Assembly: GCF_013315695.1 (NCBI RefSeq)
Contig: NZ_CP054353.1
From: Escherichia coli
Lineage (GTDB): Bacteria > Pseudomonadota > Gammaproteobacteria > Enterobacterales > Enterobacteriaceae
Direction: 5' to 3' (one strand)
Length of the DNA: 64,000 nt
Within the stretch, counting starts at the first letter, position 1. The number at the start of each line of letters is the position of its first letter. The translations under genes and the position numbers were made by a program. Of this stretch, positions 2,398-48,686 are shown piece by piece. Under the pieces are notes generated by a model, which was not told where the DNA came from, did no database searches, and saw only the letters and a program-made list of their open reading frames with translations.

Positions 2398-2671
2398 TAT
2401 CACCAGGAGCCGCGGCTCCTTTGCGTATCCTTTTTTGTCTCCTCACCGTCTGGTCGGTGTCCTGCTGAGACTGCTAACTTCCTGTTTTTATTGGTGTTGT
2501 CCTTACACCGTCCAATCATGATTGGCTGGCGGAGTTTGAATAAATATTGTATTACTTTGATTTTTAATGATTTTGTTTGATTCAGTTTTTGTGCGTATAC
2601 CTAATCGTATACCAATGGCTGTAAGTTAATGTGAAATGAAAGCGCATTTTTACTTGGATTGATGCTATATC

Positions 2672-2990
2672 GTACAGGAAAAAAATTTTTTTTCGAAAGA
2701 ACTGTTCACACTGTTCACCTTTCTTTTTTCTCCTTTTATTTCATAGTGATAGGTGGTGAATAATGGGTGAAGGGTGAACATTCGATTCTTCACCTCCGGC
2801 ATTCTGCCGGTGTGACTTGTGCAGGGGATTAATTTCCCGTGCTGAAATCACACCGGAAGAAAAAAGTTTTTTTTGATTTGATTGTTCACACTGTTCACCT
2901 TTCGTTTTTCTCTTTTAATTTCAGTGTGATAACGGGTGAATATACGGTGAAGGGTGAACAGTGGATTGTTCACCTTCGGGGGATTCAGGG
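2672..2990. repeat. crr-like region: two ~120-bp direct repeats each carrying several TGTTCACC/GGTGAACA octamer iterons
   Basis: Units at about 2701-2810 and 2881-2990 are near-identical (ctgttcacactgttcaccttt...ggtgaa...gggtgaaca...ttcacc), each preceded by an A/T-run; sits just downstream of the alpha gene as P4 crr does. Confidence 0.75.
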
Positions 2991-2995
2991 ATAAA

Positions 2996-3024
2996 AAAAG
3001 ACCGGCAGATGCCGGTCAGATGAG
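2996..3024 (-). terminator. Rho-independent terminator downstream of the alpha gene
   Basis: gaccggca/tgccggtc hairpin followed by a T-run on the minus strand, immediately after the alpha stop. Confidence 0.5.
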
Positions 3025-3033
3025 TCATGATGG

Positions 3034-5367
3034 TCAGGTTGTTGCAGGGTCGTCACATTTTGGCAGCCAGTCGCCGTAGCTTTCCTCTTTCAGCGTCAGG
3101 TTGGTCTGTATCCCCTGTTTGGTATGGCGCTTCTCGTAATTCAGTCCGTATTCCTTCAGCATCACCGGCAGCCCCAGCCCGAACATTTTCAGACTGAGTA
3201 CATTCCGGTAGCCGTTTGCCTCCATGTAGGCCAGATAGGCGTGATAGAGGTATTTACGGTAATTACGCGGGATGATACTGGCGTTCCCCATATACATGCC
3301 GCTGGTCTGCAGCAGGGTTTCCAGATAGCCGATAAAATCAAACGTCGGGTCGGCATCCCGTTTGATGTTCAGTGCCTCGTCTGAGTTCTGCTGGGACTGA
3401 AGCAGTGACCGGGCGAGCATCGGGTCGCTGAACTTCTGCATCAGGTGACGCACGATGACCGCCAGCTCGCGGGTGATTTTGTCCTTAAGCTGCGGGTCGC
3501 GCTCCTGCGGGGCTATCTGTTCCGGGAAGTGAATAATCACCCGCCGGCGTGACACGCCGCCGCTGCGGTCGGTGAAGCGCATCGGGTTATTGTTCACGGC
3601 CAGAATCACCGCCGGGATGTGCGTGGAGTACGCATCCCGGTATTTCGGGTCAACGGACACTGCATCGCCGCCGGTGATGGCCTTGAGTCCGGCTCCGTCG
3701 CCGCTCCATTTTTCCTGGTCCGGCAGGCGTATCAGTGAGAAGCCAGTTAACGCGGCACGTTCACGCGGGGATTCCAGCGTCTCGATGGTGGCCGACGTGG
3801 CGTTATCCTCACCGGCCAGCAGGGTGGCGATTTCGGCCATGATACTTTTGCCGCTGCCGCCGGGACCGGTCACCTCCAGAAAGAGCTGCCAGTCGTAGCG
3901 GTTTGCCAGCACCATAAACAGTGCGGCCAGAATCACGTCGCGTTTTTCCGCACGGCCACCGGCGGCACGGTCAAGCCAGCGCCAGAACGCGGGGGCGTGG
4001 GTCTCCAGCGTTTCACCGTCCACCGGCGGGGTGAAATCCACATCGCACAGGGTGCGCATCCAGTGTGACGGACTGTGCGGATGGAACGTGCCGTTCTGCG
4101 TGTCGAGCACGCCGTTACGAAAGCCAATCAGGCGGCGGGAGGGGGCTTCCTGCTGCGGAATAATCAGTTTCAGGGTGTCCACCACGGAGGCCACCTTCCC
4201 GGAGGAGAACGGCGCGCGCAGACGCTGAAACAGCCCGGCCACATCCCGGGCAAAGTCCTGTGGCGGCAGCACCTTCCAGACACCATTTTCATAGCGGGAC
4301 AGAAGCTGGCCGTTGGCATCGACCGCGAGCGCCTCGCCGTAATGCTCATAGATACGCATGGCCTTTTCGCTGGTACTCATGGCGGAAAACTCTGCTTCGC
4401 TCATGGTGTCGAACGGGCTTTCAGCCGGTGGCCGGATGGCATCGTAAATGGCCTTACGGGTGGCCTCCCCGCCGTACTGCGTGAAGGCATCATTCCAGTC
4501 ACCGAAGACCGGCGGCAGGGCAACAACGCCCTCACACGCATCTGCGGCTGCGGCGGCTTTTTTCTGGCCGTCACCGCTGAGGTCACGGTCTGCGGCAAGG
4601 ACAATCTGACAGGCCGGATGCTTCTGCCGGGCAAGGCTGGCCAGAGAAAGGAGGTTCACGGAAGAAAGCGCCACCATCACCGTTTCACCGGTCAGGTGAT
4701 GCACGGTAAGTGCGGTCGCGTATCCCTCCGCTATCCACAGACGTTTTCCGGCCTGATTCTGTCCTTCAAGGGTGTGACAGGTGCCCCTGACCTGTCCGCC
4801 TTTCAGGGTGCGCTTACGGCCGTCAGCACTGATTAACTGAAGGTTAACCAGTTCGCCGCTGTCGTCATACAGTGGCACCACAAGGTCACCGGCGCGCCAG
4901 CTCACGCCACCGGCTCTGTGTGTGCCGGTCAGCATCCGGCATTCCCGGCCGGGAAAGCCCTTGCGGGTCAGGTAGGCGTTACCGGTTCCGGGACGGGTTT
5001 TTGCCATCAGGGTTTGTGCCAGTGCGGCGGCGTTCTTCCGGGCAGCGTCTGTTTCAGCAACGGCGGCGGCCGTCACTGCCGGGTCAGCCGGGGGCAGGCT
5101 GCCGGTCACGGCAGCCACCTTTGCGGCCGCGTCGGACGGAGAGACACCAAACACCTTTCCAACCAGTTTCAGGCCGTCACCGGCACCACACTGATTGCAG
5201 TACCAGGTGCCGCGCCCCTCCCTGTCATCAAAACGGAAGCGGTCACTCCCGCCACAGACCGGACAGGGCTGATGACGGTTTTTCAGCACCTGAATCCCCA
5301 GCGCCGGGAGAATACGCGGCCAGTGGCCGAGCGCATGGCTGACGGTGGCGGTTACGTTCATTTTCAT
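3034..5367 (-). CDS. P4 alpha-type bifunctional primase/helicase (777 aa)
   Basis: N-terminal zinc-binding motif CPVCGG...YCNQCG, central primase region, C-terminal P-loop helicase (GPGGSGKS); size and position match P4 alpha. Confidence 0.9.
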   Translation of the reverse strand: MKMNVTATVSHALGHWPRILPALGIQVLKNRHQPCPVCGGSDRFRFDDREGRGTWYCNQCGAGDGLKLVGKVFGVSPSDAAAKVAAVTGSLPPADPAVTAAAVAETDAARKNAAALAQTLMAKTRPGTGNAYLTRKGFPGRECRMLTGTHRAGGVSWRAGDLVVPLYDDSGELVNLQLISADGRKRTLKGGQVRGTCHTLEGQNQAGKRLWIAEGYATALTVHHLTGETVMVALSSVNLLSLASLARQKHPACQIVLAADRDLSGDGQKKAAAAADACEGVVALPPVFGDWNDAFTQYGGEATRKAIYDAIRPPAESPFDTMSEAEFSAMSTSEKAMRIYEHYGEALAVDANGQLLSRYENGVWKVLPPQDFARDVAGLFQRLRAPFSSGKVASVVDTLKLIIPQQEAPSRRLIGFRNGVLDTQNGTFHPHSPSHWMRTLCDVDFTPPVDGETLETHAPAFWRWLDRAAGGRAEKRDVILAALFMVLANRYDWQLFLEVTGPGGSGKSIMAEIATLLAGEDNATSATIETLESPRERAALTGFSLIRLPDQEKWSGDGAGLKAITGGDAVSVDPKYRDAYSTHIPAVILAVNNNPMRFTDRSGGVSRRRVIIHFPEQIAPQERDPQLKDKITRELAVIVRHLMQKFSDPMLARSLLQSQQNSDEALNIKRDADPTFDFIGYLETLLQTSGMYMGNASIIPRNYRKYLYHAYLAYMEANGYRNVLSLKMFGLGLPVMLKEYGLNYEKRHTKQGIQTNLTLKEESYGDWLPKCDDPATT

Positions 5368-5381
5368 GGTGTTGTTCTCCT

Positions 5382-5702
5382 TCAGTGCAGTACCGGCGCT
5401 TTTATGTGACGGGCACAGAGTTCATCCATCACAACCAGCCCGAGAAAGGACAGCGACGGCGCGGCCTTCAGGGGGCCGGATTCCATTAAATCTTCCAGCA
5501 GGGCACAGGCTATCTGACGCCCTTTTTCCTCACCGTGCTGGCGCAGATAAAAGCCTTCCAGCTCAGCGGCGATGGCCGCCTCCAGTGACTCAAGGGTGAG
5601 ATGCGGGTAGCGGTGCTGACGTTCGCACACGGTCAGCCAGGCACAGGCGACAGCGCGACGGTAAAGGGCAGCACGTAAGACGGGCGGTAAGGGTGTTTTC
5701 AT
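5382..5702 (-). CDS. Hypothetical protein, 106 aa (P4 orf106-like position)
   Basis: ORF in operon orientation directly upstream of alpha; no recognisable motif. Confidence 0.5.
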
Positions 5703-5837
5703 TTGTTTTCCTCCCTGTGACAGATGACTGCATTCCGTGCCGGTTGCATTAACTGATAAGGCATATCTGCGTCTCCTGAAGACGTGCGTATCCCTGCGCG
5801 AATACGCACATTTAATTTTTCGGGTGTCGTTTTTTAA

Positions 5838-6293
5838 TTACAGATAATTGCGGTAACTGTTATCCGGGGTGATTTCCGGGTCAGGCTCCGTGCGGGGAAT
5901 TTCCCGCCATTCCCGCGCCACCGGTGCCGCCCGGCTGACCGGAACAGGGGCCTGCGGGTAAATATCCAGATATTTCTCCCGCCATTTCTGTAATTCCGGG
6001 TCTCCGGCCATTTCTTTCAGTACCGCATGCCGGTTTACGGGGCTGCGTTTAAACAGGTCAGGACGGTCACAGGTAAATTCCCGCAGAAAACGCCCCAGCG
6101 GGATGTCTGTGGTGCGCCCGTCAGCGAGGATACGCACAAGGATACTGAATTTACGGCGGTACGGGTTCCAGACAATGTCCGGGCAGCGGTACGGCATTTC
6201 CCACGGAATACCGTCTTCCAGAATGCCGACCACGGCCACATCGGGAAAACCGGCAGAACGGTAAATCTCACCGGGCTGGGGAAAATCAAACAT
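5838..6293 (-). CDS. Hypothetical protein, 151 aa (P4 orf151-like position)
   Basis: ORF co-oriented with alpha operon; size matches a P4 early-operon ORF. Confidence 0.5.
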   Translation of the reverse strand: MFDFPQPGEIYRSAGFPDVAVVGILEDGIPWEMPYRCPDIVWNPYRRKFSILVRILADGRTTDIPLGRFLREFTCDRPDLFKRSPVNRHAVLKEMAGDPELQKWREKYLDIYPQAPVPVSRAAPVAREWREIPRTEPDPEITPDNSYRNYL

Positions 6294-6573
6294 GCGTCTT
6301 GTCTCCCCGGTCTTTCTGCTGGGCGAGAAAATCGCGGCACAGGCCTTTGGCTTTCAGCTCATTCAGCACAAAATCAATATCTTCATTCAGGTAGCTGAAA
6401 ATATGCGGAATGTAGAGCTGATGCAGGCCGGAGAGTTCACGGTGAATCAAATCACCCCCAACAAACTGGGATACGGCGCTGGCGCGGTTGAGCTTATGGT
6501 AAGCCTCAATGCTGAGGTGTTCACGGGCGTCATGACGCGCTGAGACGGTCTGAGGGGCTTTTTTATTACGCAC
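6286..6573 (-). CDS. Hypothetical small protein, 95 aa with proposed GTG start (possible epsilon-like)
   Basis: GTG at 6571-6573 (rc) preceded by GGTGGAGG; ATG-initiated versions of this ORF have N-termini that look non-coding. Confidence 0.35.
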
Positions 6574-6763
6574 GGGACACCTCCACCACCGGCAGACGGG
6601 CAGCAAGGGAGAGCACATAGTCACGGACAAGGGAACGGCGGGCACTGCGTTCATCACCGGCGACGGTGCGAAGCATGCAGATACGGGGATGACGGTCTGC
6701 GCGACGGACAGCCGCAAACACAAAGACAAATTCAGGGTGTGAAGGGGTAAGGGTTGTAGCCAT
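6566..6763 (-). CDS. Hypothetical small protein, 65 aa
   Basis: ATG at 6761-6763 (rc) with GGAGG 9 nt upstream; C-terminal part of a longer ORF-track frame. Confidence 0.3.
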
Positions 6764-7161
6764 GATGGCAGCCTCCGTTAGATAGCAGGTTACGCTATCG
6801 CCGGAGTTTCCACGCTCGATGGCGATAGCCCAGACGGGGGTGGAAATACCGGCTCTAACGGATACCGGCCAGCCCGGAGGCTGCCCCGCCTGAGCTACCA
6901 TTGACTCTGCGGCATAATGAGCGGACGCGGGCAGGATGCACGGAGTTCCATCTGCTCGACTGACCACACACCACACCATAATCTGGCGCTCTGTGGCGTT
7001 GATTGCGACACAAAAAAAGACGCATGGCGCGTCATATGTCGCCGTTAGATTGCTCGGGTTTCCACGCCCGGCTGCCGATTTTGCGACAGCGGAAAAACTA
7101 TATCCGCAAATGCCGGAAAAAGGCAAGCCAGAAAAAGGGACTTTTTGCAGAACAGGCATCA

Positions 7162-7428
7162 TCATGCGTCGTACCCCCGTTTGCGTCCGGCAATGCGGCC
7201 GGCCATCCATGCGGTGACTTCAGAGTGCAGCCAGGCCACATTTTTACCGCCAAGACTCACCTGCGGCGGAAATTCCCCCTTACGGATGAGTTCGTAGATG
7301 GTCGAGCGTGACAGGCCGCACAGGTGCATCACTTCCGGAAGACGTAAAAAACGCTCCTGTGTGATGTCCGGCAGCGGCATCAGTGGCGTCACAGGGGCGG
7401 GAGACGGGGAAGAAAAAACAGCTTGCAT
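7162..7428 (-). CDS. AlpA/Vis-family transcriptional regulator (88 aa)
   Basis: Conserved AlpA-type HTH region (LRLPEV...[17 protein letters not shown]); same length as P4 Vis. Confidence 0.8.
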
Positions 7429-7706
7429 CGGGCTACCTCGTTAATGTCCATACAGCACCGGATAAGTCCGTCCGGCTTCGGGTAGCGCTTTATTTTGTGA
7501 ATATTTTCGGCAGACGCAACAGGGGGGATTTGTTCCGGCAGCCTTACAATGGCTGTGCATTTTTTGTACATCAGCGCCAGATAGCTTTAAAACGCTCTGG
7601 AAGGAGCTGGAAAAAATTATAGTGAAATACAAATTGTTTTTTCTTATTTATTTCAGTGAATTAATAAAAATAAAAAGTAATAAACAGCACAAAAAGCCCA
7701 TCAACG

Positions 7707-7811
7707 GGTGAACAGTGGTGAACAGACGGTGAACAGTCATTACTGCGATTGTTCACCCTTTAACTTACTGTATTACTTATCTTTTTTCTTATTGTGAACA
7801 GAGGTGAACAG
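7707..7811. repeat. ori-like iteron cluster (six GGTGAACA/TGTTCACC octamers)
   Basis: gggtgaacagtggtgaacagacggtgaacag ... gattgttcaccc ... ttgtgaacagaggtgaacag between the Vis-like gene and sid; same octamer as the crr-like repeats. Confidence 0.65.
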
Positions 7812-7980
7812 TAAAATATAAAAAAAACAAACAGTAAGCCGGTTTTTCCTGCGACCTTTTCCTGGCTTGCCGGTCGGAGGATGAGTCTCCTGTGTCAGGG
7901 CTGGCACATCTGCAATGCGTCGTGTTGTTGTCCGGTGTACGTCACAATTTTCTTAACCTGAAGTGACGAGGAACCGGAAA

Positions 7981-8715
7981 ATGTCTGACAACACCATCCC
8001 TGAATATCTGCAACCCGCGCTGGCACAACTGGAAAAGGCCAGAGCCGCCCATCTTGAGAACGCCCGCCTGATGGATGAGACCGTCACGGCCATTGAACGG
8101 GCAGAGCAGGAAAAAAATGCGCTGGCGCAGGCCGACGGAAACGACGCTGACGACTGGCGCACGGCCTTTCGTGCAGCCGGTGGTGTCCTGAGCGATGAGC
8201 TGAAACAGCGCCACATTGAGCGCGTGGCACGCCGGGAGCTGGTACAGGAATATGACAATCTGGCCGTGGTGCTGAATTTTGAACGCGAACGCCTGAAAGG
8301 GGCGTGTGACAGCACGGCCACCGCCTACCGGAAGGCACATCATCACCTTCTGAGTCTGTATGCAGAGCATGAGCTGGAACACGCCCTGAATGAAACCTGT
8401 GAGGCGCTTGTCCGGGCAATGCATCTGAGCATCCTGGTACAGGAAAATCCGCTCGCCAACACCACCGGCCATCAGGGCTACATCTCACCGGAAAAGGCTG
8501 TCATGCAGCAGGTGAAATCATCGCTGGAACAGAAAATAAAACAGATGCAAATCAGCCTCAGCGGTGAGCCGGTTCTCCGGCTGGCCGGACTGTCAGCGGC
8601 AACACTCCCGCACATGGATTATGAGGTGGCAGGCACACCGGCGCAGCGCAAGGTGTGGCAGGACAAAATAGACCAGCAGGGAGCAGAGCTGAAGGCCAGA
8701 GGACTGCTGTCATGA
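7981..8715 (+). CDS. sid: Sid-like capsid size-determination (external scaffold) protein, 244 aa
   Basis: Position first in the sid-delta-psu block; length equals P4 Sid; stop overlaps the delta start (ATGA). Confidence 0.6.
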   Translation: MSDNTIPEYLQPALAQLEKARAAHLENARLMDETVTAIERAEQEKNALAQADGNDADDWRTAFRAAGGVLSDELKQRHIERVARRELVQEYDNLAVVLNFERERLKGACDSTATAYRKAHHHLLSLYAEHELEHALNETCEALVRAMHLSILVQENPLANTTGHQGYISPEKAVMQQVKSSLEQKIKQMQISLSGEPVLRLAGLSAATLPHMDYEVAGTPAQRKVWQDKIDQQGAELKARGLLS

Positions 8716-9212
8716 TTTACTGCCCGTCGTGTGGACATGTTGCTCACACCCGCCGCGCACATTTCATGGACGATGGCACCAAGATAATGATTGCACAGTG
8801 CCGGAATATTTATTGCTCTGCGACATTTGAAGCGAGTGAAAGCTTTTTCTCTGACAGTAAAGATTCAGGAATGGAATACATTTCAGGCAAACAGAGATAC
8901 CGCGATTCACTGACTTCTGCCTCCGGCAGTATGAAACGCCCGAAAAGAATGCTTGTGACCGGATATTGTTGTCGGAGATGTAAAGGCCTTGCACTGTCAA
9001 GAACATCGAGGCGTCTGTCTCAGGAAGTCACCGAGCGTTTTTATGTGTGCACGGAGCCGGGTTGTGGTCTGGTGTTTAAAACGCTTCAGACCATCAACCG
9101 CTTCATTGTTCGCCCGGTCACGCCGGACGAACTGGCAGAAAGCCTGCATGAAAAACAGGAACTGCCGCCAGTACGGTTAAAAACACAATCATATTCGCTG
9201 CGTCTGGAATGA
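8712..9212 (+). CDS. delta: Delta late-gene activator (tandem Ogr-like zinc fingers), 166 aa
   Basis: Two Ogr-type Cys motifs (CPSCGHVAHTRR...C..C and a second CxxC...C block); length equals P4 Delta. Confidence 0.8.
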   Translation: MIYCPSCGHVAHTRRAHFMDDGTKIMIAQCRNIYCSATFEASESFFSDSKDSGMEYISGKQRYRDSLTSASGSMKRPKRMLVTGYCCRRCKGLALSRTSRRLSQEVTERFYVCTEPGCGLVFKTLQTINRFIVRPVTPDELAESLHEKQELPPVRLKTQSYSLRLE

Positions 9213-9285
9213 GGGCTGCCGGTTAACCCCGGCCGTCGCCGCACACCGTATTTTTATTCTTCAGCATGATGAGAAAGAGATAACG

Positions 9286-9858
9286 ATGGAAAGCACAGCC
9301 TTACAGCAGGCCTTTGACACCTGTCAGAATAACAAAGCAGCATGGCTGCAACGCAAAAATGAGCTGGCTGCGGCCGAACAGGAATATCTGCGGCTTCTGT
9401 CAGGAGAAGGCAGAAACGTCAGTCGCCTGGACGAATTACGCAATATTATCGAAGTCAGAAAATGGCAGGTGAATCAGGCCGCCGGTCGTTATATTCGTTC
9501 GCATGAAGCCGTTCAGCACATCAGCATCCGCGACCGGCTGAATGATTTTATGCTGCAGCACGGCACAGCACTGGCGGCCGCACTGGCACCGGAGCTGATG
9601 GGCTACAGTGAGCTGACGGCCATTGCCCGAAACTGTGCCATACAGCGTGCCACAGATGCCCTGCGTGAAGCCCTCCTGTCCTGGCTTGCGAAGGGTGAAA
9701 AAATTAATTATTCCGCACAGGATAGCGACATTTTAACGACCATCGGATTCAGGCCTGACGCGGCTTCGGTGGATGACAGCCGTGAAAAATTCACCCCTGC
9801 GCAGAACATGATTTTTTCGCGTAAAAGTGCGCAACTGGCATCACGTCAGTCTGTGTAA
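9286..9858 (+). CDS. psu: Psu-like polarity-suppression / capsid decoration protein, 190 aa
   Basis: Position after delta and length equal to P4 Psu. Confidence 0.65.
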   Translation: MESTALQQAFDTCQNNKAAWLQRKNELAAAEQEYLRLLSGEGRNVSRLDELRNIIEVRKWQVNQAAGRYIRSHEAVQHISIRDRLNDFMLQHGTALAAALAPELMGYSELTAIARNCAIQRATDALREALLSWLAKGEKINYSAQDSDILTTIGFRPDAASVDDSREKFTPAQNMIFSRKSAQLASRQSV

Positions 9859-10021
9859 AACTCCCCGAAAATCCGCCCGTTTTACTGAAAAAAGCCATGC
9901 ATCGATAAGGTGCATGGCTTTGCATGCGTTTTCCTGCCTCATTTTCTGTAAACCGTGCCATTCCCGGCGCGGTCTGAGCGTGTCAGTACAACTGCATTAA
10001 AACCGCCCCGCAAAGCGGGCG

Positions 10022-10040
10022 GGCGAGGCGGGGAAAGCAC
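10022..10040. other. cos site (cohesive end) of the P4-like element
   Basis: ggcgaggcggggaaagcac matches the P2/P4-family cohesive-end sequence as I recall it; located after psu as in P4. Confidence 0.6.
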
Positions 10041-10074
10041 TGCGCGCAGTATAAGAATTAAATAGGTATGGATT

Positions 10075-12033
10075 TTAAAATCCATCAAGTAGCTGATTGA
10101 TACCATTGCTCTCATCACAATTTATTTGCTCTAACTCAAATAAAGCACTGTCGTACTTTATTTGGGGAGTGTTTTCAAATGACAATAAAGATTCGATTAG
10201 TCTTATTTCTTTATCTTTATTTATGTCTTTAAGTGAGTCTAAAGTTAAATTGAATTTAACTTCGGGTTGTTTTCCTACTTCCATCATGATATTTGACTCC
10301 AACTCTGGATCAGTATTGAAGAATCGATGTGTCTTATGGAAATAACTAGGTTTTCTTGATTTTAAAATACTTAGTATATCCGACTTGATAGTGCTTTCCC
10401 GTGCTATCACAAGCCAATGGTTGGCAACCCCTGTGATGGTGGTAATGATGTGGGAGCCATTTTCACTTAGTTCATTAAAGGCTCTTAAGTCACCCTTGAA
10501 AAAATCATTTAGCAACTCATTTTCTTTATCTTTATCAAAAAGGTAAATTATTGAATTGCCGGCTAATGATATTTCAGCCTTGGTTTTTATAGTATCGCAA
10601 TTAAATTGCGCGGTCTCATTTTTTAATTCTTCGTAAGATGATTTTAAGTCTAAAAGCAAGCATTTTATTATACTTGATCTGAAAGATGAGTAATCAATAT
10701 CAGCACAAAGTGAAAATAAATTTCTGTGACGAATGGATTCAGGGCTGTAATATAGCTTTGTTAATATTTCTTTTTGGCGTTCTTTTGTGTCACGACAGAT
10801 AAACATAGCTGCAAAATATTCCATTAATGATTTGTGTGACCAACGAATAATAGCGCCTTCTTTGACAAATAATGGAACGGTTTCAATTAAGTCCTGAATA
10901 AAAAGAGATGGTGAAGTTGATATTCCGGGAATTTTTGAAATGATATTTTGCAATGTTATTTGCAGATCGTCTTTCGTAAACTCAATTTTACCTCCGTCTT
11001 TCAAACACCAAAAACCTAATCTCCTTAAGACCTGATGGAAGTCAGTGGAGTCTAGCTTAGAAAATTTTTCTCTAACATAACCAAGTTCTTTAGTTAAATC
11101 ATGAGACTCATACAAAGCGTCAAATACTTGGCTATAAAATAACTCTCTTTTTCTTGGTATTATCGGTTTGAATTTATATGCACAAAATAATAATGAAACA
11201 TAAAGAGGTGTGGATAAAAATTCATTTAGATTATGACCATTCTCCAGTCGTAATCCTTTAATTAATTGAGATGAAATAGGGCCACGTCCATCATATCGAC
11301 GTAATAGATCATACGCTTGATTCGTTTCTAATGGGTTGATTTTAAATCTTGAGAAACCATGTAGTTCTGATAAGAAATTATCATGACGAGAAGTTATAAT
11401 TATTTTGCTTTCTGAGAAATTATTAGCAAAGGTACTTAGTAAATTTACGATCTTGGATTTGAGTTGTTGTGGGATTTCATCTATGCCATCGAAAAGATAA
11501 ATAAAAGGGATTTTTTTGAGGCAGTTGTCTGAAATGTCTTCTCCTAAACCAAGTTGATGTTTCACCTGTAGCGCAAAATCATAATCTTTAGCACGTCGTA
11601 ATTCAATGTATATTGGAATGTATTCCTTATTAGCGATGCAATCTAAAGCAATTCTTTTCATTAGGGTGGACTTACCCATTCCTGCTGAGTCAGTGATTAA
11701 TATATGATTGAAATTATCTAATAAATCTGCATTGTCTTTTATTAGGCATGTGTATGGTTTTTTTTCATTATCGTAATAAATGCTCATTGGCTCATAAATA
11801 TCTAGAAGCTCTACTGGAGTATTTTGAAAAGCTAAGGTATTCACAAGGGAGCATTGCCCTTTCACATTTGATAGGAAACGTTCAAGATTTTTATTCAAGA
11901 AGCGTGCTGCATGTACATCTATTAAATAATTACGAACACTACTTTCTATGATAGGTAATATTTTATTCTTAATAACCTCCTTTGCCCATGGAAGGGATGC
12001 AGAGACTAATACATCAAGAGATACTGGTTGCAT
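10075..12033 (-). CDS. NACHT-type STAND NTPase (652 aa), candidate anti-phage protein in the P4 cargo slot
   Basis: Walker A GMGKST and NACHT-type Walker B LFDGIDE; long C-terminal helical region; strongly AT-rich versus flanks; sits between cos/psu and int. Confidence 0.75.
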   Translation of the reverse strand: MQPVSLDVLVSASLPWAKEVIKNKILPIIESSVRNYLIDVHAARFLNKNLERFLSNVKGQCSLVNTLAFQNTPVELLDIYEPMSIYYDNEKKPYTCLIKDNADLLDNFNHILITDSAGMGKSTLMKRIALDCIANKEYIPIYIELRRAKDYDFALQVKHQLGLGEDISDNCLKKIPFIYLFDGIDEIPQQLKSKIVNLLSTFANNFSESKIIITSRHDNFLSELHGFSRFKINPLETNQAYDLLRRYDGRGPISSQLIKGLRLENGHNLNEFLSTPLYVSLLFCAYKFKPIIPRKRELFYSQVFDALYESHDLTKELGYVREKFSKLDSTDFHQVLRRLGFWCLKDGGKIEFTKDDLQITLQNIISKIPGISTSPSLFIQDLIETVPLFVKEGAIIRWSHKSLMEYFAAMFICRDTKERQKEILTKLYYSPESIRHRNLFSLCADIDYSSFRSSIIKCLLLDLKSSYEELKNETAQFNCDTIKTKAEISLAGNSIIYLFDKDKENELLNDFFKGDLRAFNELSENGSHIITTITGVANHWLVIARESTIKSDILSILKSRKPSYFHKTHRFFNTDPELESNIMMEVGKQPEVKFNLTLDSLKDINKDKEIRLIESLLSFENTPQIKYDSALFELEQINCDESNGINQLLDGF

Positions 12034-12036
12034 GAA

Positions 12037-13245
12037 TTATACCTTATTTTCTACGTTTAAATTTTTGACCTTAAGTCCCCACCAGTTCATTAAATCGATT
12101 CTGGTATGTAAATATGTTGAGCGGTTATATGCTCTTCTAACTTCGTTTTTGTCAGAGTGCGCTAAAGCAGCTTCAATGACATCTGGGTTAAAACCTCTTT
12201 CATTCATGGCTGTACTTGCTATTGAACGTAGACCATGAGCAACCAGCTTCCCGCCATAACCAATACGTTTTAAAGCAGCATTAGCAGTTTGGCTATTCAT
12301 TGGCTGTTTTGGGTCATTTCTACTGGGAAAAACATGTTCACGATGAGCACTGATTGGTTTCATTACCTCCAGAATCTCTATTGCCTGAGGTGATAAAGGA
12401 ACAATGTGTTCCCGCTTAGCTTTCATCCGTTCGGCTGGAATAGTCCAGAGCTTTGCGTCAAGATCGATCTCTGCCCAACGAGCACCGGAAGCTTCAGAAG
12501 GGCGCACAAGGGTCAGAAGCTGCCACTCAATTAGACAGCGAGTCGAAACAGAGAGGTTCGACATCACCAAAGAGCGCATGAGTTTTGGTAATTCTTCAGG
12601 TCGTAGCGTTGGCATGTGTTGCTTTTTGGGTTTCTCAAATGCCATACCAATACCAGATGCCGGGTTTGCATCAATCAGGCCAGTGTTGACGGCGTAGATC
12701 ATGATTTCGTTAATACGCTGCACCAGTCGACGTACAGTCTCTAGCGCCCCACGTGCTTTGATTGGCTCAAGGGTTTCAACTAGTGTTCGGGCTTTGATTT
12801 GCTGGACAGGGATCTCCCCGATGACAGGGAATACGTCTTTTTCCAGTGACCGCCATATATCTTTAGCGTAATCGGGTGTAACGCTTTTGCTTTTGAGCTG
12901 GAACCAGTTAGCGGCGACCGTTGAAAAAATACTGTCCAGAGCGATTTGCTGCTGTTCCTCTGCAACTTCGGCCTGAATTTGCGGGTCAATTCCGTTGGCT
13001 AACAAAGCAAGGTAATCCGCTCTTAACCGTCGAGCATCAGCAAGTGAAAGGGCGGGGAAAGCACCAAGCCCCATCATTGTCCGCTGTTTTGTTGCTGGAC
13101 GTTGATAACGGAAACGCCACAACTTCTTACCGTTCGTTTTAACGAGCAGAAAAAGACCATCGCCATCATGTAACGTTAGATCCTTTTCTAACGCTCTAGC
13201 GCGCAGAACTTCTGTGCTGGTCAGGGGGCGTGTCGTTCTTGCCAC
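12037..13245 (-). CDS. int: P4-type tyrosine integrase (402 aa)
   Basis: P4 integrase-like N-terminus (...GLFLLV...G.K.WRFRY) and C-terminal catalytic region (...HGLR...RAYNRS); adjacent to ssrA-derived att core. Confidence 0.9.
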   Translation of the reverse strand: MARTTRPLTSTEVLRARALEKDLTLHDGDGLFLLVKTNGKKLWRFRYQRPATKQRTMMGLGAFPALSLADARRLRADYLALLANGIDPQIQAEVAEEQQQIALDSIFSTVAANWFQLKSKSVTPDYAKDIWRSLEKDVFPVIGEIPVQQIKARTLVETLEPIKARGALETVRRLVQRINEIMIYAVNTGLIDANPASGIGMAFEKPKKQHMPTLRPEELPKLMRSLVMSNLSVSTRCLIEWQLLTLVRPSEASGARWAEIDLDAKLWTIPAERMKAKREHIVPLSPQAIEILEVMKPISAHREHVFPSRNDPKQPMNSQTANAALKRIGYGGKLVAHGLRSIASTAMNERGFNPDVIEAALAHSDKNEVRRAYNRSTYLHTRIDLMNWWGLKVKNLNVENKV

Positions 13246-13366
13246 TGTGGCCGCTCCTTCATTAATTGGTATACGCGTTTAGGTAAACATCCTACCGTAT
13301 ACCTAAACGTATACCAATAATCACTGGATTTAGCTGGATATCCTCGGACAACGGTAGACACAAAAA

Positions 13367-13394
13367 AGCCCGCAGAGCTTGTGCCATGCGGGCT
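13367..13394 (-). terminator. Rho-independent terminator next to the internal att core
   Basis: agcccgca/tgcgggct hairpin with T-run on the minus strand, ~35 bp beyond the tmRNA-3'-end copy. Confidence 0.5.
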
Positions 13395-13429
13395 TTCAGG
13401 ATTTCTCCGGACGTATCCGGAAGAGCAAG

Positions 13430-13474
13430 TGGTGGAGCTGGCGGGAGTTGAACCCGCGTCCGAAATTCCTACAT
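13430..13474. repeat. Internal att core: 45-bp copy of the ssrA 3' end (junction between P4-like element and P2-like prophage)
   Basis: tggtggagctggcgggagttgaacccgcgtccgaaattcctacat is identical to 48642-48686. Confidence 0.9.
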
Positions 13475-16024: not shown

Positions 16025-16267
16025 ATGAGCACTGATATTTCAATTCGTGTACCAAAAGAGATGGCTACGCCTGCAGAGTTCGCGGAATGGGAAGGTATCT
16101 CCCGCGGCTCCGTGTATCAAAAAATTCACCATGGTCAGCTTGCTAAATACATGGTCAAGAAAGAAAAAAATAAAGGCCGCGTAAACCTTCGTTATCTGAT
16201 GTACAAAACTGATCAGGTCCGTGAATCCCTCGGTCATTCCAACTTCCGCGTCATTGTTGGTAAGTAA
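16025..16267 (+). CDS. Apl/Cox-like excisionase and early regulator (80 aa)
   Basis: First gene of the rightward early operon divergent from the repressor. Confidence 0.6.
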   Translation: MSTDISIRVPKEMATPAEFAEWEGISRGSVYQKIHHGQLAKYMVKKEKNKGRVNLRYLMYKTDQVRESLGHSNFRVIVGK

Positions 16268-29801: not shown

Positions 29802-29804
29802 TTC

Positions 29805-37314: not shown

Positions 37315-39114
37315 AATGCAAGTGGTGATGGATGGATGAAATTACCCGGAACTGGAAAATCCTGCAAAATGGTCGTGGTGATTTACGCCGAGTTTATCGA
37401 CGCTGGGATGAGAATTACATTGATTAGGCATCGTGTTTTATTGAGTAAGGCCGGACTGCGGAAAAGCACCGTCATCCTGGTGATGGCGGTGCGACTTCAA
37501 AAGCGCTGGGGGAACTGGCGATGATCTTCAGAAGGCCCAACGTTAACAGGGGGCTTTATGCCGCTGCTTACAGAACGTCATCCAACCAGCGACACGGTAT
37601 CGATGAACGACAGTTGGTGGGCTGTTGGCGGGAGTAATTTTATCCAGGGTGATTTATATTGAACGAATATGTTTATAGCTGCAATGGATAACGCCGTATT
37701 TTCCCGAGGATACCACGATTGCGGGGAATATATAAATCATAGGGATGGGATTGGTGAGACGCGGGAATATATTTCTGCATCAACTCAAAATATTTGCAGT
37801 GGGAGTTTCGGTATTGAACCGCCACAAGGACGCTCCGGTACATCTAAGGCTGGAGATGATTTGCTGTTCTGCGTGGAGAAAATCATGGGAATATGTGTCA
37901 GAAGAACTTATTGAAATTACTGAATCAGAAAACACCGGAAACCAAGATGCCAACGAAATACAGAACAGGCGACTATCCCGAAAATACAGCCGCTATCGGT
38001 CGCCATGAACGATAAATGAACTGGCGCAATATAATTGACAGATACTGGATTATCTGGACGGTGGAACTGGTTGATTCCTCCAGCACAGCGCCAGTCATTG
38101 ATTGATGGCAATGGCCTCCGGCAGTCTGGCCAGATGAAACATCCGGCGCGGGACTGTAAACTGTTGCCGTCACCGAAACAATGTAATCCAGCGCAGCGTT
38201 AAGTTGGTTGACGCTGGTGACGGCAACAGATACCGTCCGGCCGGATGTCATCAGTTGAACTGCCTGAGGCGCAGGCCATTTGCATCAATCTGGTGACTGG
38301 GAGGAATCAACCAGTTCAGTGCGTCCAGATAATCCAGCCACAAATTACCCATTTTCGCCAGTTCCCATTTATCAGACGACGTTAGCGGCTTTACCGGGTG
38401 GTTGTATTTTCATGATATTCGCCTGGCTTGATTTAATTAGTAGCTCTGTCTTTCTGATTCAGTTATAGACGATTTCACTTCGATGGTGGGTGGATGATTT
38501 TTAAATCCACAGAACGGCAAATTCATAACCAGCCTTACGGATTTTGAGCGTTGTGGCAGGTTCTGGAATAAACTCACTGCAAGATATTTTTGATGCAGAA
38601 ATATATTCCCGCGTCTCACCATCATAGTTATAGACGGTCAATATATCCACGCCTTCGTGGTAATGCCTTGCGCTATTTAAACACGGCGTCGTTCATTAAT
38701 GCAGCCCTGACGATAAGTTAAACCAACAGCCCACGGGTTGTAATTCGCCGATACCGATGTCGCTGGTGAATGACGTTCGGTGATGGGATCAGAATTAAAG
38801 CCGGTTAACCCCCTGGGCCTTCGTGCAGTCATCACGAATTGTCGCCCAGCGCCCATTCCTCTTTGAGCCATCACCCAGAATGAGTACAGGATGACGGTGC
38901 TTTTCCAGCATTTTGGGGAAAGGGATGCTAAAAACACGTCCTCATTGTTACCGCGATAATGTCGGCGTAACCGCGAATAACGACCGCATAAATCAGGTAA
39001 TTTATTTGTTGGATAATTGCCAGTTCCATCCATCAAAATGCCGCACCGTTGCAAAAGCCAGCCTGTCCGGTATCTGAAGGCCATGGAACAGTCACACCAT
39101 CCCGTTTTGCAGAG

Positions 39115-39140
39115 CTTCTCCCAAACCAACGTTTATGAAA
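39115..39140. other. Right inversion crossover site (gix/hix-like)
   Basis: ttctcccaaaccaacgtttatgaaaa, inverted relative to 37229-37254. Confidence 0.6.
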
Positions 39141-39196
39141 ATGCAGAGATAATGGCTAACTGGCATCATCCCCGGTTTTTATTCAGGGGGATGATC

Positions 39197-39763
39197 ATGC
39201 TTATTGGCTATGTACGCGTGTCAACAAATGACCAGAACACCGATTTGCAACGTAATGCACTGAACTGCGCGGGATGTGAGCGGATTTTTGAGGATAAAAT
39301 CAGTGGCACTAAGTCCGACAGACCAGGGTTGAAAAAACTGCTCAGGACACTATCGGCAGGAGACACGCTGGTTGTCTGGAAGCTGGACAGGTTGGGGCGC
39401 AGTATGCGGCATCTTGTTACGCTGATAGAAGAGTTGCGTCAGCGAGGCGTGAATTTCCGAAGCCTGACTGACAGTATTGATACCAGCACCCCAATGGGCC
39501 GTTTCTTTTTTCATGTCATGGGTGCCCTGGCTGAAATGGAACGCGAACTGATAGTTGAACGTACCAGGGCAGGGCTGGCTGCAGCTCGTGCCAAAGGCAG
39601 AGTAGGTGGACGCCGTCCTAAGTTGACCACCGAACAGTGGGCACAGATTGGGCGTTTACTCGAGGCCGGAGAATCAAGACAGCGTATTGCACTGATTTTT
39701 GATGTAGGCGTTTCTACCATTTATAGAAAATTTCCGGCAAATAAGAGCAATGAATCTCCCTGA
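39197..39763 (+). CDS. pin: Serine DNA invertase (Pin/Gin/Hin family), 188 aa
   Basis: MLIGYVRVSTNDQNTDLQRNAL...DTLVVWKLDRLGRSM... matches E. coli Pin; aggggg RBS before ATG 39197. Confidence 0.9.
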   Translation: MLIGYVRVSTNDQNTDLQRNALNCAGCERIFEDKISGTKSDRPGLKKLLRTLSAGDTLVVWKLDRLGRSMRHLVTLIEELRQRGVNFRSLTDSIDTSTPMGRFFFHVMGALAEMERELIVERTRAGLAAARAKGRVGGRRPKLTTEQWAQIGRLLEAGESRQRIALIFDVGVSTIYRKFPANKSNESP

Positions 39764-46810: not shown

Positions 46811-47029
46811 ATGATGAATTGTCCAAAGTGTGGTCATGCGGCGCACACAAGGAGCAGTTTTCAAGTAACGGAAAGCACCAAAGAACGTTACTGCCAGTGC
46901 CAAAATATTAACTGCGGGAGCACTTTTGTTACCCATGAAACAGTGGTCCGGTTTATTGTGACACCTGCAGTGATTGCCACAGCCCCTCCACATCCATTGC
47001 CAGATGGTCAGGGCCATATGAATTTTTAA
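46811..47029 (+). CDS. ogr: Ogr late-gene transcriptional activator (zinc finger, 72 aa)
   Basis: MMNCPKCGHAAHTRSS...CQCQNINC... matches P2 Ogr. Confidence 0.85.
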   Translation: MMNCPKCGHAAHTRSSFQVTESTKERYCQCQNINCGSTFVTHETVVRFIVTPAVIATAPPHPLPDGQGHMNF

Positions 47030-47269
47030 GAAAGAGAACCTGCTACGGCAGGTTTTATTTTTCTGTAAGCCTATCCATTTAAAGTATAAATGAATATTTA
47101 CATTGATGATTATCATTAGAGTTGCGTTAAAGACTACACCTGCCATTTGTACAATGTTTTAAAGTAATGGCTGCAATTAAATGCAGCCATTATTTATAAT
47201 GATTAATATATATAAAATATCAGACACTGAATAATAACGTACTTTATGTTCAAGGGTCGATATAATCAC

Positions 47270-48346
47270 TTAATAGAATGTTTCTACTAAAGCGTTTACA
47301 TGTTCTCTAGCCTCGCGATAACGCTCTCTTACAACGTTGATAATTTCACCGTTTGGCATTTCATAATGAGTTTGAGCAGGAAGTTTGAAAAGAGGAATTC
47401 CCAAACTTGCAGAAACTTTCCCTGAAGTATGAAAATCTTTAACTTCAGAAAGATAGGCCGCCTCCCATTCATTTAAGTTATTGATTTCACGATATCGCTC
47501 CGTGAATAGTTCTGGGAAGTTCTGATATTGTGTAAAAGCAAAAGCACAAAGGGATTCTTTGATTGAATCATAAGCTCTGGCAACACCAAGATTAGACGTA
47601 AAGTTATTGAAAACAAAGCGATCTAACTTAGGTAATGTAAGATTATTATTCACAACTTGGCTATGAAAAGTGACAAACTTTTCTGCATAGGTTTGTGCAG
47701 CAGAAGAGGGATAATGGCCATAAAGAAGCATCATTATTCCTTTCATCCCTTCTAATGAACTGTAATCAGCCATCATAGGGACGACCAGTCTATCTGAAGA
47801 TAGTAGAGCCATTTGGGTGTAGATAGAAAAACTTGGATTACAGTCAATAAAGACAACCATATCATCGTAATCATCAATATCATGTTCTAGAGTACATAGT
47901 CGACGAAATGCTGTCATATACTCTTTCCATGCGAACCTGTTAGCTGGACTGATAACTGCATAGTTCAGTGCAAGAGTAAGGGACTCGAGGAATGAATCAC
48001 CGGCGATGAGAAACAAATTATCGCTGATTTCATCATTATATTGGTTTACTGCTACTTTGAAAGAACGTCGAATACTGGTGAAATTTGAATGGCCATCTAA
48101 AAGCCAGTCCAGAAACCCTACGACATTTTTGCGTGTTCGTGAAGATTGTAGCTCTTGATTAGTATTGTACCCACGATCACCTCCTCCAAGCAGGTATTGA
48201 GAAATGTTTGCTTGCGGACACAAATCTATTACTAGTACCTGTGTGCTGGGATTTTCTTCTGCATACTGTGCAGCAATGTTGAAACCAAGTGTTGTTTTTC
48301 CAACACCGCCTTTGTTGTTATACATTGCATAAATCTTAACTGCCAT
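47270..48346 (-). CDS. ParA/MinD-like P-loop ATPase with ~150-aa C-terminal extension (358 aa), cargo gene between ogr and attR
   Basis: Deviant Walker A NKGGVGKTT, A' motif VLVIDLCPQANIS, Walker B VVFIDCNPS; AT-rich. Confidence 0.7.
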   Translation of the reverse strand: MAVKIYAMYNNKGGVGKTTLGFNIAAQYAEENPSTQVLVIDLCPQANISQYLLGGGDRGYNTNQELQSSRTRKNVVGFLDWLLDGHSNFTSIRRSFKVAVNQYNDEISDNLFLIAGDSFLESLTLALNYAVISPANRFAWKEYMTAFRRLCTLEHDIDDYDDMVVFIDCNPSFSIYTQMALLSSDRLVVPMMADYSSLEGMKGIMMLLYGHYPSSAAQTYAEKFVTFHSQVVNNNLTLPKLDRFVFNNFTSNLGVARAYDSIKESLCAFAFTQYQNFPELFTERYREINNLNEWEAAYLSEVKDFHTSGKVSASLGIPLFKLPAQTHYEMPNGEIINVVRERYREAREHVNALVETFY

Positions 48347-48641
48347 GTGTATTTCACCCGAGGTTGAATAAAAGCCTACTACATCGCTATTTTACCATTC
48401 AATTTTATCATTAGCAGATTCCAATGAAGAAGATACTTCTGGTTTATCTAATGAAAATTGTGAAGTAAAAGTAGGATACTTCATTCTTCTGCAGTGAGGG
48501 GGGCGTGGATAACATTATAATTTCTTGTTGTATAGCCTTTTCGGGAAAGAGCAGACAAGATTTACATAAAACTCTGTCGCCATTTTGCCGCCACTTCCAA
48601 AGAAAAAGGGGCTACGCTTTCACGTAACCCCTTGATTTATT

Positions 48642-48686
48642 TGGTGGAGCTGGCGGGAGTTGAACCCGCGTCCGAAATTCCTACAT
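48642..48686. repeat. attR core: 3' end of ssrA, identical to 13430-13474
   Basis: 45-bp exact direct repeat. Confidence 0.9.

Follow-up and report, generated by a model that had tools for sequence, protein, structure and literature searches.

How should a temperate phage and a satellite of such phages be understood when they are found end to end at a single attachment gene? The question arises from a 64-kb stretch of an Escherichia coli genome (the window), in which a P2-family prophage and a P4-like element abut each other beside ssrA. A first-pass annotation had taken the two for a potentially functional helper-satellite pair. We consider it probable that each is an independent and apparently intact element, the two being stacked in tandem ('piggy-back'), and that their adjacency is a by-product of target choice.

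Architecture of the ssrA locus

Both elements occupy the chromosomal slot between ssrA and ypjA, and they are delimited as follows.

48642-49004, minus strand: intact ssrA (tmRNA), by ARAGORN and Rfam (tmRNA, 295.8 bits)
48642-48686, minus strand: proximal att copy, the last 45 bp of ssrA (exact repeat)
13475-48641: Elveevirus-like P2-family prophage of the Cartapus/Fels-2 type, 35.2 kb including one att copy
13430-13474, minus strand: internal 45-bp copy of the ssrA 3' end (exact repeat), the boundary common to both elements
about 2540-13429: satellite element of 10.9 kb, a P4 variant with 97.4% nucleotide identity from crr to cos
2522-2540, minus strand: degenerate distal att of the satellite, where the displaced 3' end of ssrA runs into satellite DNA (TTGGCTGGCGGAGTTTGAA), located by flank comparison

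The ssrA 3' end had been described as present twice in direct orientation, and this holds exactly, with the 45-mer TGGTGGAGCTGGCGGGAGTTGAACCCGCGTCCGAAATTCCTACAT found at 13430-13474 and 48642-48686. It had no match in 100 dinucleotide-preserving shuffles, even with up to 3 mismatches allowed, and a pattern search for a third copy at the same tolerance returned only the two. The distal att copy of the satellite is detectable solely by comparing flanks with LR-33, HS4 and MARGA_3. Homology with E. coli LR-33, whose ypjA flank is free of the element, ends exactly at positions 2522-2540, and the same junction is found in HS4, where the ssrA end is better kept (TGGTGGGCTGGCGGAGTTTGAA), and in MARGA_3. 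The earlier statement that no distal att lies in 2363-2700 is thus superseded by the cross-genome comparison, and since the att lies at 2522-2540 the left boundary of the satellite moves from 2590 to about 2540. The degenerate core is common to all satellite copies compared, so it appears to be the normal attR of this satellite.

The locus therefore holds an intact ssrA, and each island has an integrase (14255-15271 in the prophage and 12037-13245 in the satellite) and a displaced fragment of the gene's 3' end, every copy lying in direct orientation. The original description of two elements in tandem at ssrA, a prophage between the two exact copies and a P4-like element with an integrase of its own to the left, stands.

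The P4-type satellite

The satellite carries the following features.

2594-2616, plus strand: 23-nt repeat CGTATACCTAATCGTATACCAAT, recurring at 13296-13318 (96% identical, 10.7 kb apart)
2680-2979, plus strand: crr (cis replication region) with two 120-bp direct repeats, collinear with the annotated P4 crr at 4291-4590
3034-5367, minus strand: alpha primase-helicase, 777 aa, full length, 99% amino acid identity to P4 alpha
5382-7428, minus strand: left operon (orf106, orf151, epsilon, cI region, orf88/vis), full length, 92-100% amino acid identity to P4
6818-6905: CI RNA, within the cI region of the left operon
7162-7428, minus strand: orf88/vis, P4 homologue
7981-8715, plus strand: sid, full length, 97% amino acid identity to P4
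8712-9212, plus strand: delta, full length, 96% amino acid identity to P4
9286-9858, plus strand: psu, full length, 99% amino acid identity to P4
10022-10040, plus strand: cos of the satellite, whose cohesive end GGCGAGGCGGGGAAAGCAC matches the P2 and P4 termini exactly, with P4-like flanks
10075-12033, minus strand: short NACHT protein, 652 aa, C-terminal domain SNaCT5, at the P4 defence hotspot as cargo that replaces P4 gop/beta/cII
12037-13245, minus strand: satellite integrase, 402 aa, ssrA-specific type (NCBIfam PRK09692, 588 bits)

Alignment to P4, a check named beforehand, confirmed homology from crr to cos, with 97.4% nucleotide identity between window positions 2680-10021 and P4 positions 4291-11624. 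The core set of P4-like elements is given as an integrase, psu, delta, sid, an AlpA/Vis-type regulator, epsilon/ash and alpha (Moura de Sousa & Rocha; PMC8628076, PMC10085698). All 7 of these are present here, co-localised and in conserved order, and tblastn against P4 recovers full-length matches for alpha (99%), the epsilon region (97%), vis (99%), sid (97%), delta (96%) and psu (99%). The claims that the left element is P4-like, with its integrase next to the internal att copy, and that it carries sid, delta and psu are both borne out, the last three at 96-99% amino acid identity. Rfam finds the C4 antisense RNA (76 bits) and isrK (72 bits) in the left operon. The Psid activator sites at 7891 and 7929 precede sid and are identical to the P4 sites at 9493 and 9531, and a P2-type cos lies between psu and the integrase-side hotspot. 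The list of open reading frames for 2540-13429 contained no capsid, tail or terminase genes, only P4 homologues, the NACHT gene and the integrase.

The element departs from P4 on its integrase side. The cargo protein has Pfam matches to NACHT, SNaCT5 and nSTAND3 and is a 'NACHT domain-containing protein' in RefSeq. The integrase shares only 37% amino acid identity with P4 Int, and in genomes that lack the prophage it directly adjoins an intact ssrA. The 23-nt repeats are candidate arm-type integrase binding sites flanking the attP core of the satellite.

The P2-family prophage

The features of the prophage that bear on its identity and on its possible role as a helper are listed here.

14255-15271, minus strand: int, amino acid identity 94% to Cartapus and 54% to 186
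15273-15905, minus strand: CI repressor, 210 aa, amino acid identity 51% to Cartapus and 32% to 186
16025-16267, plus strand: Cox/Apl-like protein, 80 aa, 99% amino acid identity to Cartapus (PHROG: Cox-like excisionase)
16300-16809, plus strand: CII, amino acid identity 99% to Cartapus and 68% to 186
21758-21777, plus strand: LexA box TACTGTAAATATAAACAGTA, from a pattern scan, followed by a 62-aa open reading frame and then the DinI/Tum-like gene
22016-22249, plus strand: DinI/Tum-like gene (NCBIfam DinI), 43% amino acid identity to the C-terminal part of 186 Tum
23695-23713, plus strand: prophage cos, cohesive end GGCGTGGCGGGGATACGAG, Cartapus type
24956-30455: portal and large terminase (minus strand), scaffold, major capsid and small terminase (plus strand), amino acid identity 96-100% to Cartapus and 45-63% to P2/186
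46811-47029, plus strand: Ogr/B-family late activator, 72 aa, amino acid identity 99% to Cartapus Ogr, 56% to P2 Ogr and 66% to 186 B

The element had been called a complete P2/186-like prophage. The completeness stands, as this is a complete member of the Peduoviridae: the P2-type morphogenetic set is present in P2 order (Q P / O N M L X ... V W J I H ... FI FII E T U D ogr), together with cos, int and the replication gene A. The likeness to P2 and 186 is not close, since the structural proteins share 45-67% amino acid identity with theirs, and across the whole set, with int and A, the P2/186 homologues range from 38 to 69%. Each essential gene of Cartapus has a full-length counterpart here. 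The morphogenetic and replication proteins are mostly 96-100% identical to those of Cartapus (tape measure 89%, S 84%, LysB 81%), and rejoining the prophage ends gives exactly the attP of the free phage Cartapus. By megablast over 13475-38400, Cartapus covers 74% at 95.8% identity and Klebsiella phages 81% at 95.2%. The nucleotide similarity to Cartapus is about 0.71 when computed for 13475-38400 only, with the remainder compared at the protein level (89-99%). The ICTV genus guideline is about 70% nucleotide identity over the genome length. By these comparisons the prophage is neither P2 nor 186 and is classed as an Elveevirus/Cartapus (Fels-2-like) phage. Spontaneously encapsidated DNA of Cartapus has been reported in strain LF82 (PMC9928086).

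By homology the lysogeny switch is of the 186-style CI/Apl/CII kind, the Tum-like operon is probably under LexA control, and no protein of the lysogeny module has detectable similarity to the P2 C repressor. Four cargo proteins, of 216, 71, 280 and 138 aa, received no assignment from PADLOC, NCBIfam or Pfam.

The tail-fibre cassette and the integrity of the elements

One region of the prophage has the look of decay.

37229-39141: invertible tail-fibre cassette with 27-nt inverted crossover sites at its flanks, a mosaic of both orientations
39197-39763, plus strand: Gin/Pin-type DNA invertase, 100% amino acid identity to the Cartapus invertase

Decay of 37315-39190 was considered on account of in-frame stops at 37312 and 37522, frameshifted tfa genes and an identity of only about 76% to any cassette from E. 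coli. It was ruled out by an excess of nested repeats and by a mosaic test. Nested inverted-repeat pairs number 13 in the cassette at 37229-39141, where real cassettes have 2-3, and 96% of the bases in this cassette match either the forward or the reverse 23CRST024 cassette (F 573, R 504, with 192 switches). The test is backed by simulated mosaics and by a real-cassette control, the pro483 cassette, which gave F 1032 and R 74. The scrambling is thus evidently an assembly or consensus mosaic of two orientations and not gene decay, and it implies an active invertase. H keeps an intact constant part (residues 1-369, 96% to Cartapus), and its variable cassette is unreadable as a mosaic.

This result bears on whether the two elements have become immobilised, domesticated islands that are kept for their cargo (NACHT, TIR, ParA-like) and are phage and satellite no longer. 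Defence-type cargo in known P4 and P2 hotspots, the degenerate distal core of the satellite and a tail-fibre cassette without long open reading frames would all fit such a reading. However, no essential gene of either element is truncated outside the invertible cassette, the disruption of the cassette is accounted for by the two orientations, and a distal core that is degenerate in every satellite copy compared is what a normal attR would look like. There is likewise no damage to either att pair, either cos site or the candidate arm repeats. We therefore regard domestication as improbable.

Recurrence of the tandem arrangement

A junction running from the satellite integrase through the att site into the prophage arm was found in 19 of the 5,426 complete genomes of E. 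coli, and about 9 would be expected from chance co-occurrence. The expectation assumes independence of the distal junction of the satellite (233 genomes) and the integrase type of the prophage (219 genomes). The comparison is a rough one, since the 19 include clonal duplicates and the expectation ignores clonality and phylogeny. On this rough estimate there is no clear enrichment of the pairing, although the excess could reflect a mild real association. A preliminary impression that no tandem case exists elsewhere was discarded: long queries had ranked genomes with only the satellite or only the prophage first, and the short junction query returned the 19. Two of them, HS4 and MARGA_3, were inspected in full and have the same order of ypjA, satellite and prophage, with other cargo genes and a different satellite variant. 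The satellite also occurs alone at ssrA, as does the prophage or a prophage remnant.

These counts also speak to an assembly error, in which repeats were collapsed or misjoined at the 45-bp repeat. The mosaic at 37229-39141 is one clear consensus artefact in the window, but 19 complete genomes, each assembled independently, have the junction, with the same order in both that were inspected in full, and an error of this kind is very hard to credit.

The adjacency needs no functional reason, because the target sites of the two integrases overlap at the 3' end of ssrA. The satellite integrase would cross over in the last 15-20 nt or so of ssrA, and the prophage attP shares 45 bp with the gene, such that a cell holding both elements would be expected to hold them end to end. 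Each element could in principle excise alone, via its own pair of repeats. The arrangement is an ordinary tandem tDNA array. 'Piggy-back' prophages are described in work on Phage_Finder (PMC1635311), and tandem islands at such genes in work on Islander (PMC4383910). In the literature searched we found no discussion of a helper and a satellite sharing one att site. Tandem genomic islands at tRNA and tmRNA genes are reportedly treated by Williams in 2003, under the title 'Traffic at the tmRNA gene'.

Compatibility of helper and satellite

The remaining question is whether the neighbours also work together, with the induced prophage supplying capsid, tail, terminase and lysis, Sid and Psu remodelling the capsids, and the satellite being packaged from its own cos. 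The P4 hijacking set is intact (epsilon, sid, delta, psu, alpha, cos) and its neighbour is an intact P2-family phage. TGT-N12-ACA sites near -55 (Ogr/delta sites) are the basis of reciprocal late-gene transactivation. The prophage has them in its three expected late-promoter regions, at 27797 (the divergent late promoter within 24956-30455), 33705 and 39811, and the satellite at 7531, 7891 and 7929 (Psid, PLL). With Psid sites identical to those of P4 and a prophage activator at 56-66% identity to Ogr/B, the late-promoter activator sites of the two elements look compatible, as judged at the sequence level. SOS induction could then act through the Tum-like protein to inactivate CI and lead to expression of the Ogr-type activator, which may in turn switch on sid-delta-psu from the satellite Psid. 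It is possible that the neighbour is exploited in this way at late transcription.

The other interactions of the P2/P4 system are less well matched. P4 epsilon binds the P2 C-type repressor and so derepresses the helper. The resident repressor, the 210-aa CI, is 32% identical to 186 CI and has no detectable similarity to P2 C, which argues against derepression by epsilon, whose specificity is established in the P4 literature. Helper and satellite are said to share the cos packaging signal, in a statement that PMC9122126 attributes to Ziermann & Calendar 1990. The two cos sites here differ at 5 of the 19 cohesive-end bases and in the left flank, and have only short conserved blocks in common (TGCAT.AAAA, AAG.GGGC, GGCG.GGCGGGGA and GCGCG). 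The satellite cos differs from that of its neighbour in all three tandem pairs examined. The proteins that would have to recognise the satellite DNA and be remodelled by Sid are also distant: amino acid identity to P2/186 is 48% for TerS, 63% for TerL, 59% for the major capsid protein (gpN in P2) and 45% for the scaffold, against 70-88% for the same proteins between P2 and 186, both proven helpers. Terminase, scaffold and capsid have therefore diverged more from P2/186 than these two have from each other. In the literature searched we located neither the gpN residues that define Sid responsiveness (sir) nor a report of an Elveevirus or Fels-2-type phage helping P4.

The claim of a potentially functional pair thus keeps its support from the activator sites and loses it at cos, at the repressor and in the terminase, scaffold and capsid. 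Phage 186 reportedly helps P4 despite cos differences of its own (attributed to Sauer et al. in 1982), and together with the shared cos blocks this makes packaging by the neighbour possible. The conserved block architecture of cos and a tandem junction at about twice the chance frequency point the same way. Helper function of the neighbouring prophage is plausible from the sequences, and we hold a functional pair to be a tentative reading, clearly second to that of two independent elements. Less probable again, and in our view unlikely, is the wider proposal that this P2-cos satellite is mobilised by a Fels-2/Cartapus-type phage whose cos, terminase, scaffold and capsid fall well outside the P2-186 range, with ssrA keeping the pair linked and one SOS signal (LexA, Tum-like, Ogr) launching both. 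The exact P2-type cos of the satellite suggests that a true P2-type phage usually serves as its helper. Our view covers the 64 kb of the window, and a better-matched P2-type helper may lie elsewhere in the genome.

If mobilisation by a Cartapus-type phage were true, the helper range of P4 would be wider and the locus would be a co-inherited helper-satellite module and not a coincidence. As it stands, the locus is a clean, fully delimited case of a satellite and a P2-family phage at one attachment gene, and it illustrates that co-location of a helper family and a satellite family can come simply from shared integrase targets. The strain is a convenient natural one for asking whether the helper range of P4 reaches Cartapus/Fels-2-type phages. 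Two annotation traps also become apparent: a degenerate distal att that is visible only across genomes, and a flipping tail-fibre cassette that resembles a run of pseudogenes once averaged by the assembler.

Comparison with known systems

The satellite is closest to P4 (X51522 / NC_001609), with which it shares the stretch from crr to cos, vis and the origin included, in the same gene order, and an identical 19-nt cohesive end. It differs in that the NACHT gene and the 402-aa integrase stand in place of P4 1-4290 (gop, beta, cII, int and a leuX-type attP), and in its location at ssrA instead of leuX. The prophage is closest to Cartapus (OV696611, Elveevirus; the prophage of AIEC LF82, described as Fels-2-like), with an identical cos, an attP that holds the same 45-bp ssrA segment and an identical DNA invertase. 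Unlike Cartapus, it has a CI that is only 51% identical, which implies a different immunity, other cargo at att-int, A-to-cos, cos-to-portal and ogr-att, a different tail-fibre cassette and an extra 120-aa gene before dam.

As a pair, the elements resemble P2-P4 and 186-P4 in combining a P2-family myovirus, which has an Ogr/B-type activator and TGT-N12-ACA late promoters, with a satellite that has sid, delta, psu and epsilon. They differ from them in structural and packaging proteins that are 45-63% identical, in a cos that differs at 5 of 19 positions and in the lack of a P2 C repressor, and the literature searched gave no experiment in which this phage type helps P4. The cryptic prophage CP4-57 of E. 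coli K-12, which we take to be a decayed element running from ssrA and intA to ypjA, appears to use the same slot and to have a PRK09692-type integrase beside ssrA, and the satellite here differs from it in having a full P4 gene set. Tandem tDNA islands have the same plan of an intact target followed by successive islands, each with an integrase and a displaced 3'-end copy, and the present locus differs from them in that its islands come from a helper family and a satellite family.

Integration site and ends of the two elements

The locus lies between two host genes:
47-2362: 3' part of ypjA, left flank of the window
48642-49004, minus strand: intact tmRNA gene (ssrA), the one such gene called by ARAGORN and Rfam

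The terminal 45 bases of ssrA (48642-48686) have a single further exact copy, at 13430-13474 in the same orientation, which bears out the direct repeat reported by the first-pass annotation; the 45-mer went unmatched in all 100 shuffles, even at a tolerance of three mismatches. In E. coli strain LR-33, ssrA is followed on its right by smpB, ratA and onward; this gene order and the ypjA flank identify the host as E. coli and the locus as its slot between ssrA and ypjA. The genome of phage Cartapus reads acgctttcacgtaaccccttgatttatt, then the 45-mer, then accattttt..., corresponding to window 48614-48641 fused to 13475 onward. As the ends of the right-hand prophage rejoin as Cartapus sequence, the 45-bp repeats are its true ends.

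For the P4-like satellite on the left, a third att copy had been reported as not found in 2363-2700, and comparison of flanks across genomes reveals a degenerate one there. In LR-33, without the satellite, a displaced ssrA end (...CCAATCATGATTGGGGGCTGGCGGGAGTTGAACCCGCG...) comes after the ypjA terminator. The corresponding flank in the window reads ...CCAATCATGATTGGCTGGCGGAGTTTGAATAAAT... before satellite DNA starts, and the equivalent positions read TGGTGGGCTGGCGGAGTTTGAATAAAT in strain HS4 and GATTGGCTGGCGGAGTCTGAATAAAT in strain MARGA_3. This comparison places the distal junction at 2522-2540. The short match alone is not significant; it is validated by coinciding with the point where homology breaks off in the three other genomes. 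The crossover maps to the final ~15-20 nt of ssrA, GCTGGCGG(G)AGTT.

The satellite

Features of the satellite are:
2594-2616 and 13296-13318: 23-nt repeat, copies 96% identical, on both sides of the att core; candidate arm-type integrase site, from its position
10022-10040: cos, exact match to the P2/P4 cohesive end GGCGAGGCGGGGAAAGCAC
10075-12033, minus strand: hotspot cargo, 652-aa short NACHT protein with SNaCT5 C-terminal domain

The proposal of a P4-like element with its own integrase is upheld by database search. A single alignment joins window 2680-10021 to P4 4291-11624 at 97.4% identity, and alpha (777 aa), orf106, orf151, epsilon, vis/orf88, sid, delta and psu are full length with 92-100% amino acid identity to P4. 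The crr repeats and cI region are also retained, with a C4-family antisense RNA (Rfam) at the cI locus position. Rfam also matches isrK, an Hfq-binding sRNA, at 7013-7090 (minus strand) within the P4 left-operon leader, adjoining the CI/C4 RNA locus, which is consistent with isrK-type RNAs being derived from P4-like elements.

Past cos, the NACHT/SNaCT5 gene and a 402-aa tyrosine integrase of the PRK09692 type, only 37% identical to P4 Int, stand in place of P4 gop, beta, cII and int. The satellite is ~10.9 kb long, near the 11.6 kb of P4. The cos-integrase interval is a known defence hotspot of such satellites (Rousset et al., PMC9122126). At least two dozen RefSeq E. coli genomes encode the NACHT protein at 99.7-100% identity, and in these ssrA is occupied by the satellite without a neighbour.

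The prophage

Features of the prophage are:
13590-14240, minus strand: 216-aa cargo ORF, matching only PHROG families without assigned function
21758-21777: perfect LexA box TACTGTAAATATAAACAGTA, upstream of a 62-aa ORF and a DinI/Tum-like gene
22520-23577, plus strand: 71-aa and 280-aa cargo ORFs, matching only PHROG families without assigned function
23904-24923, plus strand: two-gene cargo between cos and the portal gene
37229-39141: invertible tail-fibre cassette
47270-48346, minus strand: 358-aa ParA/AAA_31-type ATPase, in a low-GC (0.36) stretch between ogr and att

The description of this element as P2/186-like is right at the family level, but a much closer relative exists: proteins of 13475-48641 are 45-69% identical to those of P2 and 186, and most are 96-100% identical to those of Escherichia phage Cartapus (Elveevirus, Peduoviridae). 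The prophage is complete as first described, with a full-length counterpart for every essential Cartapus gene. These include portal, both terminase subunits, scaffold, capsid and head completion; the lysis genes, R, S, V, W, J, I, the constant part of H and the invertase; FI, FII, E/E', T, U, D and ogr; and int, apl/cox-like, cII, dam and A. Cartapus is itself an LF82 prophage, called Fels-2-like, whose encapsidated DNA arises spontaneously (PMC9928086), and by analogy the present prophage is likely viable.

Its CI (210 aa) is 32% identical to 186 CI and 51% to Cartapus CI, its CII is 68% identical to 186 CII, and a Cox/Apl-like protein is also encoded. The LexA box ahead of the DinI/Tum-like gene suggests 186-style SOS induction, and the regulatory layout is 186-like rather than P2-like. 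In LR-33, a 3.9-kb remnant of the same prophage (L001 13151-17050, 99.9% identical) lies between ypjA and ssrA with the 216-aa gene, int, CI, apl-like and a truncated cII; here a relative has decayed through internal deletion.

Several intervals carry cargo. The pair beside cos, in the P2 hotspot, is a candidate TIR defence pair anchored in the membrane. One gene encodes 138 aa with about four hydrophobic helices; the product of the other, 200 aa long, has a TIR_2 domain and, at its N terminus, two hydrophobic helices. PADLOC gave only domain-level matches (SAVED-TIR, PDC-S66, ThsB) and no system-level match. Cargo hotspots beside cos are described for both element types (PMC9122126). The ogr-att interval is a further variable cargo locus, since its content in related prophages differs: a BRCT-domain protein, an exonuclease-like gene or others. 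In the att-int interval, relatives have an HNH endonuclease, a RES-domain protein or something else.

The H reading frame is interrupted by in-frame stops within the cassette region, and 37315-39190 holds no ORF above 150 aa. This could be read as tail-fibre decay. However, 13 inverted-repeat pairs are nested about a single centre in the cassette, where real cassettes have 2-3, and 96% of the bases in the segment match the cassette of strain 23CRST024 in forward or reverse-complement orientation, with informative positions split 573 forward to 504 reverse over 192 switches. The genuine pro483 cassette, as a control, gave 1032 against 74, and a simulated block mosaic with a mean block length of 6 matches the numbers of the window. 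The excess of repeats and the near-equal mosaic rule out decay. The best E. coli match is collinear yet only ~76% identical, and the adjoining invertase gene matches its Cartapus counterpart at 100% identity. Most likely the cassette is a consensus of reads from both orientations, the segment actively flipping in the sequenced culture, and the ~50:50 fine-scale mosaic puts spurious stops and frameshifts into four genes.

Compatibility of the pair

The suggestion of a potentially functional helper-satellite pair fares unevenly, with activator and activator sites in its favour and cos, repressor and packaging proteins less favourable to it. The Ogr-family activator of the prophage is 56% identical to Ogr and 66% to 186 B, TGT-N12-ACA elements occur in its P/O, V and F promoter regions, and in the satellite both Psid sites are identical to those of P4 and the PLL site is kept. 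With such sites in both elements, transcriptional cross-talk is likely. P4 epsilon targets P2 C, to which the prophage repressor bears no relation, so derepression by the satellite's epsilon is unlikely. The prophage cohesive end GGCGTGGCGGGGATACGAG differs from that of the satellite at 5 of 19 positions, and its left flank also differs, with short blocks conserved between the two cos regions. This mismatch recurs in two other tandem genomes: the satellite cos is P2-type in HS4 (L009 8790) and 186-like GGCGTGGCGGGGAGAGCAT in MARGA_3 (L008 8833), each next to a prophage with the Cartapus-type cos.

P2 and 186 were both reportedly proven as P4 helpers by Sauer et al. in 1982. Their proteins share 88% (TerL), 70% (TerS), 76% (capsid) and 81% (scaffold) amino acid identity, against only 63%, 48%, 59% and 45% between the prophage and either phage. 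Our literature search found no test of Cartapus/Fels-2-type phages as P4 helpers.

Adjacency and precedent

HS4 and MARGA_3 share this order (ypjA, then the P4-like satellite, att and a Cartapus-type prophage) and have different cargo genes, the MARGA_3 satellite being of a different lineage. A 351-bp junction query (coverage at least 80%) found the tandem in 19 of 5,426 complete E. coli genomes. The distal satellite junction occurs in 233 of these and the prophage integrase type in 219, so ~9 tandems would be expected under independence against the 19 observed, which include obvious clonal repeats. Either element also occurs alone at ssrA. Since either order of arrival gives the same final structure, the order is unreadable from the sequence. 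Two integrases with a target gene in common are an adequate explanation of the adjacency.

Tandem islands at tRNA/tmRNA genes were reportedly described by Williams in 2003. They are well documented (PMC1635311, PMC4383910), and about half of E. coli genomes have a P4-like satellite, often together with P2-like prophages (PMC8628076; bioRxiv 10.64898/2026.02.27.708500). In the literature searched we found no discussion of a satellite and a helper-family phage on one att site. The locus is a new instance in which the kinds of element and the kind of arrangement are both already known.
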